A stretch of DNA of 64,000 bases from Octopus vulgaris (Eukaryota): positions 8,122,001 to 8,186,000 of the forward strand of contig OX597831.1 in the NCBI GenBank assembly GCA_951406725.2. Reading direction: 5' to 3'. The translations under genes were made by a program, and so were the position numbers. Shown one piece after another: positions 26,678 through 49,228 of the stretch (positions are counted from its first letter, which is position 1; every line of letters starts with the position of its first letter). The notes beneath the pieces were generated by a model. The model was not told the DNA's origin, ran no database searches, and saw nothing but the letters and a program-made list of their open reading frames with translations.

Positions 26678-26786
26678 AGAAAATTATTGTCAGTAACTTT
26701 GAAGCTTCAACTAGTTAAGCCATCATTAGGCTACTGATGATGGCCTAAACTGGCTGAGGCTTCAAAGTTACTGTCATTAATATTCT
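26678..26786. repeat. Imperfect fold-back palindrome with a degenerate hammerhead starting at the apex (Penelope pLTR-like relic)
   Basis: Arms ~26678-26729 and 26734-26786, loop GCTA. Right arm begins CTGATGA-T-GGCC(taaact)GGCT-GAGG-CTTCAAAGTT. Lies between (TA)n tracts. Confidence 0.6.
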
Positions 26787-26888
26787 CATTTTAGAATGGG
26801 GAATTTGTGCTCTACAGAGGTTTGGAGTATACCTATCAGATTAATGTAAGATTGTTTTTATCATAACTGAACATAAAAACAGACATTA

Positions 26889-26920
<32 letters not shown>

Positions 26921-26923
<3 letters not shown>

Positions 26924-27330
26924 AAAACTCTGCTTGTGAAGACCCGTTGAGGCAAGTGACGATCAGAATCGAAATCGATCAATGGAAATCGATCAATGGA
27001 AATTGCAGATGTGTTACCAGTGCCGGTGGCATGTAAGAGAACTTTCCGTTTCGCGACCGTTGCCAGCCTCGCTGGCCCTCGTGCCGGTGGCACATAAAAA
27101 GCACCATCCATTCGTGGCCGTTTGCCAGCTCTGTCTGGCACCAGTGCGGTGGCACGTAAAAGCACCCACTACACTCACGGAGTGGTTGGCGTTAGGAAGG
27201 GCATCCAGCCGTAGAAACACTGCCAGATTTGACTGGGTCTGATGAAGCCGGCTGGCTTCACAGAAGTAGAACCGTCCAACCCATGCTAGCATGGAAAACG
27301 GACGCTAAACGATGATGATGATGATGATGA
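26921..27330 (+). mobile_element. SINE-like family B with internal GTGCCGGTGGCACGTAAAAAGCACC repeats and a (GAT)n tail
   Basis: Contains GGTTGGCGTTAGGAAGGGCATCCAGC and ends CATGGAAAACGGACGCTAAAC(GAT)n. Reverse copies at ~6797-7104, 10115-10392, 12595-12875, 20698-20985, 49438-49720, 50660-50882 and 52580-52782. Confidence 0.8.
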
Positions 27331-27349
27331 TATATATATATATATACAC

Positions 27350-27884
27350 ATTCATAAATGAGGGTGAAAAATTAGATATTAATTTAATAATACCGTCAGT
27401 TTAACACCAAGTGGCCTAGCACATAGAAACCAGGGAGACAGTACAAATTTATACATAAATATAAGAGAGTTAACGTTAAGTGGCTAACTCTAGTGCTAGA
27501 AATAGCTCCTTATTCTGGTATAGCCACCGAAGTTGTTTCCACAGAAGAAATAACATTACCTTCAACGTAAGGGAAGCGAAATACAACGAAAAGATAGATT
27601 AATACTGAACAATTGTTTCTTTATCAACATAATATGCAATTATACTCACATATTTGTCTATAATTCATCAGCAGTATTTGTCCTCGATACAATTTATCAG
27701 ACCCACACGGGCGATAAAGTACTCATGCGGTCTGATCGATTGCATACATAGTTGTGGTTTAGCTTCCCGCCAAAAGCATGCTAAGACTCCGTGGAAACCA
27801 ATACCGCATACAAAATTTGCTGCAGCATACTTATTTTATAAATTCATAAATGAGGGTGAAAAATTAGATATTAATTTAATAATA
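27350..27884 (-). mobile_element. Hammerhead-containing unit with terminal direct repeats (retrozyme-like or Penelope pseudo-LTR-like), 492-bp period
   Basis: Identical 43-bp direct repeats at 27350-27392 and 27842-27884, an internal hammerhead motif on the minus strand, and a (TA)n tract at the left edge. Confidence 0.7.
27601..27678 (-). ncRNA. Type I hammerhead ribozyme motif
   Basis: Minus strand: AAUACUG-CUGAUGA-[long imperfect stem II]-GAA-ACAAUUGU-U-CAGUAUU. 7-bp stem I, intact core, palindromic helix III, GUU triplet. The closing pair of stem II is an A.A mismatch. Confidence 0.75.
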
Positions 27885-45430: not shown

Positions 45431-46500
45431 CATACAAGGTTCTTTACCATTTTCCACATGTTGACAAGACATTAGACTAGTGTGTCTGCAGACTTGCCTC
45501 ACATGAGTTGCCCTTATTTTTCCATTAAATTCTGACTCTTTATTAAAAATTTAGCCAACAGCAGTGACCATCTACCACCCATCCACACACACACACATTC
45601 TTACTAGAAGTTTTTGACTTGGTTTTCAGCTTAACATTGCACCCCTGTATCCTTGTTGTATTATGACTATATTATCCAAGCAAAGACAAGCTACATTATT
45701 ATCGTAGTTTTGAGATTTCGATGATGTGATTGTTTATCTTTAAAATGACATTGTTGGGTAGGCTGGATCTGGCCAGTTTGAACAGAAAATTTGGGCAAGA
45801 TACGACCAGTTTAAATGCTAAATGATTAGGAGTGTTGTCCCTCACTTCACTACACACAAAAAGCATGCAGTCCACTCAGTAAAGTGGTTGGTATTAGGAA
45901 GGGCATCCAACCATAGAAACGAAGCCAAAACAACAGATAGTTGAAACTTGGTGCAGCCCTCCAGCCATGCCAGCTCCTGTCAAACCATCCAACCTATGCC
46001 AGCATGGAAAATGGAATTTAATGATGACAATGATGATGATGATGGCATCGTGTGCTGTTGTATAGACTTTGTTGACCTTCAGATTTAAGGTCCACAAAAT
46101 CAGTTGTGAACCCCTCTTTTACTAGTAAGGAGTATCGTATTACTCTCTGAATATTTCTGTTGCTCTTATGAATCACAGGTTTGGATTCTTTCATGAAATG
46201 ATTTAACATTAATCCATACTGTGTGATATTAATTATAATCTTGTGTTGAAAATCCGTTTCTATTATTTTCTGCTAAATTAGAGACCGTTGAGTTTACTTC
46301 CCAATTGCAATGTGCCTTCATATTCTAGCAGAAAAACAAAAAAAATCACCCCCACCAAAAAAATAACAAAGTTTAATCTATTTTTACCTTATTAAAACTA
46401 ATTACAGTTAACCAAATGCCTGAAGGAATTAACAAGAATTTGGTAAGAGTAGATCCAAACAGCCAGGTTTTGTCATTGCTAATAATAATGATAATCATCA

Positions 46501-46546
<46 letters not shown>

Positions 46547-48731
46547 ATTATACATTTGTATGTATGTGTGTGTGTTTGTGTGTGTGTATATATTTCAATA
46601 TTACATAGTCACCATACTGTGATTTTTCAGCGTTTTATTCACCTGACTGCTATCAACCCAAATTTGTTTAGAATTTCTTCCGTTGCACTCACACACACAC
46701 ACACACACACCTTCATCGCTTTATTTACTTCTCCTTTTCTAATCTCTGAAGGCAATTCTTCATTCGAGTTTTTATTATTTTTTTTTTATTGTTATTTATT
46801 ATTTACTCACTTTTTTAAAAAAAATTCTTTTTTTTACATTAGAACATTACCTGAATATTTCCATAATAACACTTTTCTCCTTCAATGTTTACCAGCCGCT
46901 AAAAGAAGGTGTTTGGGGTGATGAAGTGCAATTTTGAACTCTTCACGTTCCACCCCACCCTTCCTCCTGCCATCCTTATTTGACACATTCAGACTTTGTT
47001 TCAACACACACACACGGTTCTAAATCTTCTATTTGCTCTTCTGCTTTTTCTCTTTACTCCTTCTTTTTCTTCTATTCCCAAGTCTTATCCTTATTTCTTT
47101 GGTATTTTACACGTTATCAATTTAATCCCACCCCCCACTCCCCAGACAAAAAAAAAAACTCTTCCTTTCCTAATAGTTGTGTTATTAAGTTTGGTGTCAC
47201 AACCACAAGATTTCAAATTCATTTCTGCCATGTCTCATCTTGGTCAAGTGTCTTCTTCTTCTTCCAAAGTTCACGAATGTCTCGTGAGTGGAACTGGTTG
47301 ATGGAAACTGTGCAAAGCCCATCATACAATGTGTGTATTTCATCATCCTTTAATGTCAACTTTTCTAGGCTTCCACGGGTCAGTTTATTGAGGCAGATTT
47401 TCTACAGCTGGATGTTCTTCCTGTCACTAACCCTCACCTGTTTCCATGCAAGACATTTCCCCATGACTAGATTTGGTTTTCATGAAAGACTAGAAGTAAA
47501 TAACATTGCATGTACAACGATTATGCTCAATGGCAATTGTGGTGTGAGGACAAGAGTACGCAAAAACACACTCACACATACATGTGCTCATGCACGCACA
47601 CACACATACATGTGCACATGCACGCGCGCACACACACACACACACATGTATGTATTTGACAGGCTTCTTTTACTTTGTGCCTACCAAATCCACACTTAAA
47701 GGTTTGCTAGACCCAGGATTATAGAAAACACTTGCTCAAGATCCCTTGCAGTGTGATTGAACCCAGAGTAACATGGTTGAGAAGAAAGCTTGTTAACCAC
47801 CCAGCCATGCCTATACCTTGTATGTCTGTAAATGTGTATGTATCTGTATCTGTCTCAATGTCCATCTTTTACATTACCACTGTTCGTGTTCTGTAACTTA
47901 GAGGTTTTTCAAAGGGATCAATAAAATATGGACCTTACATAACAAAGCAAATAACTTAACTACCGGGGTCAGTATGAACAACTAATACACAAAACACCTT
48001 GAAGGTGTTGCTTCAGCATGGCCACACCAAGTGCAAAGACTGGAACAAAAACAGTCAAAGAATAAACACACAGCTGAAGACGTTTCTAATATCTTCAAGT
48101 CTGCAGCAAGAAATTAGTTTTATTTAGCTCCGTTACTAAAGTAGAAAGAAAAAAATAACTGATTTTTCTATGACAAATTATCATTGAAGGTTAGTATCAT
48201 GAAAGACAGTGAAGAATAACAAACAAACAAAACACATCTAATTATATAAAAACTTAATTATATTGACACCGTAGTTTATAATTTTCTGTAACATTTTTTT
48301 GCTCTAATCATATGAGAAAAACCTTTAAACATATACAGATTTTTTTTTTTATCTTTATTTCAAACAAATCATTTTGCATTTTTTCTTTTCTTTTTCTATT
48401 TTTTCTTTCTTTCTTTTTTTTTTCTCTCACTTTCCTTGTGAATATCATTTAAATTGACAAATAAAGCAGGACTGATTTCTGTTTGTTGTTGCTGAAATAA
48501 ACATCTTTCTTCTATTTTCTTAGAAAGTTACCTTGATTGGTTGGGAATATTTACAGATGAATATTTTAAAAAGCTGTCGCCATTTTTCAAATATGTTTCG
48601 AGTTTTAGTTCTTATCAAACAAAACTCTGATGAAAATCTTGACTGTGTGAGAATTAGAAAACACACACGCACACACACACGCATATTTATATACATACAT
48701 ACATATGTACAAACATATATGCATATGTATG

Positions 48732-48791
<60 letters not shown>

Positions 48792-48826
48792 TACACATAC
48801 ACAATGCATATATACTTCACATACAC

Positions 48827-49228
48827 ATATGCCTCTGGCATATTTGAACTTGTAACAAGTTTGTATTTACACACATCACTGCTTAGCACTGTCAGCCTGT
48901 ATTTTATTAACGGTGAACCATTGAGTGGCGCCACAACCAGTCATCGAATGGTAATAGAAATACGATATGACAGACCTGTCTCTCGTGTCAGTTTGCAACA
49001 TCTGCCTTCCTGGCCTCTGTTGCTGAAGAGGAGATAACCACTCCACAGCGCATGCATCCCACAGTCTGGTCAGGTGGCGCTGTCAGCTGACTCATTCTAT
49101 TTACATCAATTTGTCTCCAGTGAGAAATTTTCCCCATCACAAAACACAGTGAATGACTTTCTTCCCGGGTTCAAATATGCCTCTAGCATATTGGAACTGG
49201 TAACAGTTCTGTATTTATATACATCACT
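48827..49228 (+). mobile_element. Hammerhead-containing unit with terminal direct repeats, 348-bp period
   Basis: 54-bp direct repeats at 48827-48880 and 49175-49228 (46/54 identical ungapped), an internal degenerate hammerhead, and an adjacent (TA)n/(CA)n tract. Confidence 0.65.
49009..49074 (+). ncRNA. Degenerate type I hammerhead motif
   Basis: CUGUUG-CUGAAGA-GGAG(auaacca)CUCC-[ACAG in place of GAAA]-CGCAUGCA-UC-CCACAG. Stem I is extended by CCUGGCC/GGUCAGG. Helix III resembles the palindrome ACGCAUGCGU. Confidence 0.6.

Follow-up and report, generated by a model that had tools for sequence, protein, structure and literature searches.

Five hammerhead ribozyme repeat families at an octopus locus and their probable insertion by Penelope-like elements

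Hammerhead motifs in the window

A 64,000-nucleotide (nt) stretch of the Octopus vulgaris genome (GenBank assembly GCA_951406725.2, contig OX597831.1, positions 8,122,001 to 8,186,000; hereafter the window, whose numbering is used throughout) contains five hammerhead ribozyme motifs, with cores at 26734 (+), 27671 (-), 31358 (+), 42768 (-) and 49023 (+). An initial annotation of the DNA had placed motifs at these sites and the placements hold; the motif with its core at 27671 ends at 27601, and that with its core at 42768 ends at about 42719-42727. The motifs and the repeats that carry them are named F1 (26734), F2 (27.6 kb), F3 (31358), F4 (42.8 kb) and F5 (49.0 kb). All five are confirmed as genuine and each belongs to a different multicopy family. 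Their features are listed in Table 1.

Table 1. Hammerhead-bearing features of the window
Feature	Position	Strand	Description
F1 inverted left arm	26658..26727	-	5'-truncated, ends at short 3' end, without tail; reverse complement about 80% like right arm
F1 direct arm	26728..26889	+	damaged hammerhead (core 26734) and about 110 nt of 3' end into (TA)n
F2 insertion	27350..27884	-	1.09 copies of a 492-493 nt non-coding unit; ends at long 3' end in (TA)n
F2 hammerhead	27601..27678	-	7-bp helix I, CUGAUGA at 27671, 45-nt extended helix II, GAAA, palindrome ACAAUUGU; predicted cut after GUU at 27608
F3 inverted left arm	31278..31354	-	ends at short 3' end (about +40 from cut site); identical to right arm over its length
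F3 direct arm	31355..31512	+	hammerhead CCGAAGA 31358, GAAA 31396, predicted cut 31408, plus tail
F4 insertion	42592..43000	-	1.15 copies of an about 355 nt non-coding unit; ends at short 3' end; damaged hammerhead core 42768
F5 insertion	48824..49228	+	1.17 copies of a 344-348 nt non-coding unit; damaged hammerhead core 49023

Searches covered the 2.8-Gb source genome, with at most the 40 best candidates scored per search. Candidates numbered 1469 for F1, 1418 for F2, 28 for F3, 1090 for F4 and 1289 for F5; these figures are not copy numbers. None of the motifs is single-copy, the case that would have undone the earlier reading. Outside the core, the five natural window copies have no significant similarity to one another (best E 0.064), as had been reported.

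At family level all five motifs have the CUGANGA core, GAAA and NUH in type I topology, and all five have a palindromic helix III of 8-10 nt; the description of them as Penelope-type type I hammerheads is thus upheld. Among aligned copies, F5 has CTGAAGA in 39/54 and GAAA in 37/54; F4 has the core in 29/34 and GAAA in 28/34; F2 has CTGATGA in 29/53, CCGATGA in 15/53 and GAAA in 51/53. Counting either CTGANGA or CCGANGA as a core gives 39/54 (F5), 29/34 (F4) and 45/53 (F2). The U4C core, present in F3 and in 15/53 F2 copies, is a described hammerhead variant (PMC3088659).

The window copies themselves are mostly damaged. A strict descriptor (C[CT]GANGA, helix II, GAAA, palindromic helix III, UH, helix I), which matches once in 30 dinucleotide shuffles of the window, is passed by one of the five copies, F2 at 27671 (-). 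At 26734, GAGG replaces GAAA and helix I is not proper; at 49023, ACAG replaces GAAA; at 42768, helix II is mismatched; at 31358, the core is U4C and the 5' strand of helix I is lost at the inversion junction. Intact motifs are present in other copies of each of these four families. The Rfam check that the annotation had proposed returned no hammerhead among 150 listed of 181 window matches, and none at E up to 10 in 26660-27900 or in one good F5 locus.

The unit periods and terminal redundancies are borne out: 492 bp with 43 bp repeated at 100% identity, 354 bp with about 51 bp at 80%, and 348 bp with 54 bp at 85%. The failure of four of the five window copies under the strict descriptor, together with the lack of an Rfam hammerhead match among the listed matches and searched regions, could be explained if the motifs were chance or decayed sequences and the terminal repeats around them had arisen by local tandem duplication or as long target-site duplications. 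This explanation is scarcely credible: every unit family has roughly a thousand candidate places or more, the cores are conserved and the same period recurs at many loci. It is refuted by this multicopy tandem structure.

F3, and probably F1, as ends of protein-coding elements

The motifs at 26734 and 31358 each form the right arm of a head-to-head inverted pair, an arrangement absent from the initial annotation; the window copies of F1 and F3 both consist of a short direct arm and a head-to-head inverted arm. The annotation had also found none of the five motifs linked to an open reading frame (ORF). This is correct inside the window, but not at family level for 31358 and 26734, which are associated with ORFs of the Hydra clade of Penelope-like elements (PLEs).

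Over 157-158 nt the F3 window arm matches, at 100% identity, the repeats on either side of an ORF in loci L171 and L236-L238. This 717-amino-acid (aa) ORF has a reverse transcriptase (RT) followed by a C-terminal GIY-YIG endonuclease, and the element forms tandem arrays with a period of 2589 bp (<3 kb). The translation contains the RWK, DKT, CxCx5C, CxxC and CxH motifs (criteria from PMC8557442); Pfam gives the ORF a weak GIY-YIG match (E 0.004) and no RT match. The element inserts into (TA)n, and its hammerhead lies within the pseudo-long terminal repeat (pseudo-LTR). When compared by eye with the protein of Hydra-1_Obim, the F3 ORF shows long shared runs. An assignment to Naiad was rejected, as the endonuclease is C-terminal and the motifs are those of Hydra. 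Judging by these sequence features, F3 is the pseudo-LTR of a young, intact autonomous Hydra-clade element. It is taken to be very young because 129 of 150 scored matches to the last 193 aa of the ORF are 100% identical.

Shorter open frames of recurring length (222, 243, 543 and 664 aa) occur beside the intact 717 aa in F3 copies at L236-L237 and among the scored endonuclease matches; these may be recurrent frameshifts or homopolymer errors of the assembly. A 5'-truncation hot spot just before the F3 core is not claimed, because that junction is where the query started and frequent words are skipped by the search (28 DNA candidates versus 23,368 protein candidates).

F1 is older. Its best-scored copies are 78-83% identical, and the short 3' end of the window copy recurs in others. 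Long copies have an upstream non-repeating body of at least 830 bp, beyond which lie decayed Hydra ORF remnants in the sense orientation (L277, 28% identity over 199 aa, E 3e-8). Weaker remnants lie upstream of F1 in L263 and L265 (E 0.01-0.07), and decay has made the clade motifs unreadable. On this evidence F1 is probably the 3' end of an old, decayed Hydra-type PLE.

F2, F4 and F5 are ORF-less units

The remaining three units are a few hundred nt long, lack an ORF, have a GC content of 32-45% and carry one hammerhead each. Many F4 copies carry a further 50 nt or so. Copies of F2 are 88-99% identical (best 40 of 1418 candidates); identity is 70-85% for F4 (among 1090 candidates) and 73-81% for the best whole-unit copies of F5 (1289 candidates). 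The families therefore differ in age, as the annotation had suggested, with 88-99% between F2 copies against about 70-85% for F4 and F5. Each window copy has one hammerhead, and two or more consecutive hammerhead-bearing units are found at L062, L076 and L079 (F2), at L003, L008, L014, L025 and L284 (F5) and at one F4 locus, L057.

Upstream of the hammerhead, copies of F2, F4 and F5 meet only the previous copy of their own unit, an inverted arm or the flank. A PLE protein match that is upstream, in sense and contiguous was found in none of 60 F2 loci (overlapping; 47 unique), 40 F4 loci and 60 F5 loci. In the nearest cases (L083, L058, L194, L355 and L361) the PLE matches are opposite in orientation, downstream or separated by other repeats, and were judged independent.

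Since two of the five motifs proved to be PLE ends, and sampling was of top-scoring loci with 1.5-kb flanks, F2, F4 and F5 could also be mere pseudo-LTRs, repeated at the 3' end of autonomous PLEs, with the ORF hidden behind two or three tandem units and overlooked. This is improbable. The unique upstream body of F1 and of F3 was seen within 30 loci each, while none was seen in the 60 F2, 40 F4 and 60 F5 loci or in 25 loci of a sister family of F2 (see below). As a young family, F2 should have a near-intact parent; among 95 PLE-protein loci (25+20+50), none has F2, F4 or F5 as terminal repeats, and no autonomous parent resembling them in nucleotide sequence appears. The hammerhead of a Hydra-like family with an 841-aa ORF does have the 8-nt helix III palindrome of F2; such palindromes are common to several families and this is a lead only.

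F2, F4 and F5 likely depend on Penelope elements as non-autonomous parasites, of the type known as non-LTR retrozymes. The proposal that the motifs represent non-autonomous ribozyme families is thus retained for these three units and fails for 26734 and 31358, which are taken to be ends of ORF-bearing Hydra elements, an outcome that the annotation itself had named as contrary to its reading.

Insertion ends and target sites

End positions are counted from the predicted cut site. F2 segments end 3' at +152-167 (25/74) or +252-277 (39/74). In F4, 20/62 end at +119-135 and 17/62 at +240-255, while 10 others are alignment breaks at an indel; in F5, 56/74 end within +145-197. The gap between the two preferred 3' ends is about 37 nt in F5, 65 in F3, 100-105 in F2 and 115 in F4. 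Two preferred 3' ends, scattered 5' ends and head-to-head inverted arms are common to F2-F5, and are seen by eye in F1.

Among the 24 inverted F2 pairs, 17 have a short end on one arm and a long end on the other, none is short-short or long-long, and 7 have an end elsewhere. The 19 inverted F3 pairs include 12 mixed and 1 short-short. One candidate rule, that the two 3' ends lie opposite one another on a single RNA stem, is true of the F2 window copy alone, and not of the F2 majority or of F3, F4 and F5; it was rejected as a general feature. The 5' ends of F2 are scattered over the unit, with 1/74 within 5 nt of the cut site (expected 1.5). A microsatellite adjoins 35/36 F2 ends.

Segment lengths run from 0.1 to 2.6 units (up to 1.84 in F2 and 2.56 in F5), and 32/76 F2 segments and 36/72 F5 segments exceed one unit. 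With these lengths, fixed 3' ends and scattered 5' ends, a 'monomer plus short terminal redundancy' is not a fixed design, contrary to the annotation. Because of the range of lengths, the 43-54 bp redundancy is explained as a chance stop in the second lap.

One-ended tails, inverted 5'-truncated arms and partial tandems are reported as the PLE pattern (PMC8557442; PMC3846280), and the PLE tail is described as the distance between two internal RT start sites (PMC11167929). The tails found here, at about 37, 65, 100 and 115 nt, are longer in three of four families than the reported 30-40 bp.

RNA folding and the F2 sister family

Folded as circles, majority monomers of F2, F5 and F4 are far more stable than shuffled sequences, with z-scores of -5.3, -6.3 and -7.1, and the natural F2 copy has -5.7. 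Eight controls, including the F3 repeat region, range from -1.8 to +1.4. The autonomous F3 repeat region thus folds unremarkably (z -0.7), unlike the units, a further argument against an overlooked ORF behind them. When two copies are folded together, a double-hammerhead dimer is predicted for F2, its sister family and F5; for the remaining families the prediction is an intermolecular helix III. Stem covariation, proposed as a check in the annotation, is present in the F2 hammerhead: its score was reached in 0/500 shuffles.

The F2 sister family (L311-L336, L364) is 506 nt long, 73% identical to F2 and 90-97% identical between copies; it is young, and ORF-less in 25 loci. It has a fully canonical hammerhead with the G10.1-C11.1 pair and a GUC site, inverted arms and two 3' ends about 110 nt apart. 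The ribozyme helices are retained between F2 and the sister via compensatory changes.

Conservation of the fold was tested by predicting a structure from six F2 monomers and examining it in six sister monomers, and the reverse; this is one comparison of two lineages. For the F2-derived structure in the sister, 14/20 double changes are compensatory (10/16 outside the ribozyme, P 0.009); for the sister-derived structure in F2, 14/19 are compensatory (9/13 outside the ribozyme, P 0.03). On the sense strand, tolerated single changes are about twice as frequent.

Probable Penelope-driven insertion

The five motifs very probably arose by PLE retrotransposition, two as 5'-truncated ends of Hydra-clade PLEs and three within non-coding units likely parasitic on a PLE reverse transcriptase-endonuclease. 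Because F2 and Hydra share the (TA)n target, a Hydra-type enzyme likely drives F2; F4 and F5 are likely driven by some PLE enzyme.

Under this model, a unit would be transcribed as more than one monomer, either as a linear multimer from a tandem locus or as a circle closed by ligation once the hammerheads have cut. Cleavage would require dimers, formed via the palindromic helix III. A PLE protein would bind the folded RNA and nick both strands of AT-rich or (TA)n DNA. Reverse transcription would start from two internal positions, one for each strand, as has been demonstrated in vitro with the anole element, and each complementary DNA (cDNA) would end at a random point. Joining would then yield a direct arm, an optional inverted arm and a tail; in the 27.6 kb copy, the cDNA would have ended 43 nt into the second lap.

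A number of observations weigh against this explanation. As no autonomous parent is present in the 95 PLE-protein loci, the driver is inferred only, and since no array is longer than those given above, an ORF behind a longer tandem is possible. Whole-unit queries favour tandem copies, and flanks were 1.5 kb. Inverted F5 pairs are noisy (about 5/13 mixed, 1 long-long), and microsatellites adjoin 8/37 F4 ends and 13/55 F5 ends, most of which are not in microsatellites. The old window copies fold weakly (z -1.2 and -2.3), and F4 folds well in antisense too (-5.7; the other antisense values are -2.1 and -2.8). F4 covariation is borderline, with 15-27/500 shuffles reaching the score; compensatory pairs are present in its helix II. 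For the circular-fold versions outside the ribozyme, P is 0.07 and 0.02, so one of the four tests is not significant. The young F2 subfamily is without the G10.1-C11.1 pair and has GUU; its sequence suggests for these reasons that it may cut poorly.

The RNA template bears on a refinement of PLE mobilisation, in which F2, F4 and F5 are true circular-RNA retrozymes: monomers cut from tandem transcripts are closed by host ligase and the circle is read for more than one lap by a PLE RT. Monomer size, GC content, lack of an ORF and strong self-pairing match non-LTR retrozymes as described in PMC7229834. The cDNAs cross the cut site freely, often for more than one unit, and repeats inside one insertion differ by 3.3-3.6%, against a median of 5.9-7.3% between insertions. 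The compensatory changes in the F2 and sister ribozyme helices further indicate that the ribozyme is under selection in an ORF-less lineage. However, all of these points are equally expected from an uncut linear multimer. The recurrent differences within insertions are transitions or lie at the short end, and the comparison of insertions fits both templates alike. No conserved helix requires a circle (consensus fold -89.9 linear, -84.2 circular). In the published accounts, the anole hammerhead is dispensable for insertion, with uncut RNA the main substrate (PMC11167929), PLE-type hammerheads cleave weakly (PMC4209133), and 8/9 Xenopus retrozyme dimers remain uncut (bioRxiv 10.64898/2026.07.22.740005); for these three reasons the circle is regarded as a serious but minority possibility. 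Assembled contigs of four runs presumed to be RNA include F2-like contigs, with no joint that separates a circle from a genomic tandem.

Returning to PLE-driven insertion as such, the template would be either an uncut linear multimer or a re-ligated circle, because cDNAs cross the cut site without pile-up there. The annotation's suggestion of reverse transcription more than once around a circle, or across tandem pseudo-LTRs, is compatible with the data, which fit both templates equally and do not single out the circle. A more specific idea is that the 493-nt unit and its 506-nt sister are genome-encoded viroid-like circular RNAs under selection for the fold of the whole molecule, with a Hydra-type RT that starts on the circle at two sites, separated by about 100 nt, once for each nicked strand. 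This is put forward tentatively and is rather unlikely.

Other Penelope-like and dispersed repeats

A tail-only fragment of a sixth hammerhead family (85% over 67 nt) lies at 9977-10043 (+) between (TA)n runs; the motif of this family is in L155:192-237. In the flanks of loci L001-L310 there are about 20 helix III types of PLE-like hammerhead, many with a very long helix II or a U4C core. A family with a 781-aa RT and GIY-YIG ORF (L172-L174; G000:C16:20834500-20842500 and others) is present in many intact copies with equal scores; another ORF lies upstream of this ORF, which is followed by 93-bp repeats, and no hammerhead is found in L172-L174 by the descriptor. Loci L394-L413 contain additional intact families of Hydra-like type, whose ORFs are about 840 and 960 aa long.

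Elsewhere in the window, 4675-5310 (-) contains the decayed 3' part of a gene for a reverse transcriptase resembling those of long interspersed elements, in two frames and with a weak zf-RVT match. A 135-nt inverted repeat without spacer lies at 40954-41223 within a microsatellite block. Several dispersed families of 100-230 bp, resembling short interspersed elements, occur across the window.

Comparison with known systems

Hydra-clade PLEs include Hydra-1_Obim of Octopus bimaculoides (Craig et al. 2021, PMC8557442). F3 resembles the clade in its single ORF, C-terminal GIY-YIG, RWK, DKT and CxCx5C motifs, length below 3 kb, (TA)n target and hammerhead in the terminal repeat. Unlike Hydra-1_Obim, it has a different hammerhead sequence with a U4C core, and is very young with many intact ORFs. 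The F3 and F1 tails (about 65 and about 95 nt) differ from the 30-40 bp in the literature; F1 is probably a decayed relative.

Non-LTR retrozymes are known from coral, mussel and axolotl, with PLEs proposed as their movers (Cervera and de la Pena 2020, PMC7229834), and also from amphibians, Xenopus dimers having been tested in a preprint (Li, Clavereau and Pollet 2026, bioRxiv 10.64898/2026.07.22.740005). The latter treats them as non-autonomous PLE derivatives and, in its available text, samples no mollusc. F2, F4 and F5 are like the retrozymes of both papers in being ORF-less units of a few hundred nt with low GC, one type I hammerhead, head-to-tail arrangement, self-pairing and coexisting PLEs. 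The 493 nt of F2 exceed the 150-450 range of PMC7229834 and fall within the 51-972 range of the preprint. Unlike the canonical loop-loop hammerheads of retrozymes, those of F2, F4 and F5 look PLE-like, with an 8-10 nt palindromic helix III and, in F2, a long helix II; their observed arrays are short. The preprint accepts minimal hammerhead motifs too. It argues from co-occurrence and phylogeny, whereas PLE tail and inversion marks are found directly on F2, F4 and F5.

The non-autonomous MRC1 of Chlamys (PMC8557442) is likewise an ORF-less PLE dependent with pseudo-LTRs and head-to-tail insertions. MRC1-type elements are described there with a 3' end that resembles an autonomous partner and no canonical hammerhead, while no such partner of F2, F4 or F5 is found in the PLE-protein loci. 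In Poseidon of Anolis carolinensis (Frangieh et al. 2024, PMC11167929), as is proposed here, the tail is accounted for by two internal RT starts that lie downstream of the hammerhead, and as here targets are AT-rich; Poseidon belongs to a different clade, is autonomous and has a 30-40 nt tail.

Hammerheads in PLE repeats and a possible circle intermediate are in print (PMC4209133), as is dimer cleavage of PLE hammerheads (cited in the review PMC6765202). No paper on cephalopod retrozymes was found, PMC8557442 being the sole relevant return for hammerhead, Penelope and octopus in a search that left most subscription papers outside.

Implications

ORF-less hammerhead units that probably borrow Penelope enzymes are an arrangement already described in other animals. 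None of the components found here is of a new kind, and a hammerhead-bearing Hydra element has been published from a cephalopod before; the addition is the direct PLE insertion marks on ORF-less, structurally conserved units.

The origin of the partial tandems of PLEs and the role of their hammerheads are not settled, and the case for PLE movement of animal retrozymes has so far rested on co-occurrence and trees. The source genome holds both a young ORF-less 493-nt unit with Penelope tail and inversion marks and several young intact Hydra elements; because the two coexist, enzyme and substrate can be paired in vitro. If the 493-nt unit does move as a circle primed by a Hydra-type RT, this would directly prove that animal retrozymes are carried by Penelope machinery via circles, and would provide a small young substrate for deciding whether Penelope partial tandems derive from circles.

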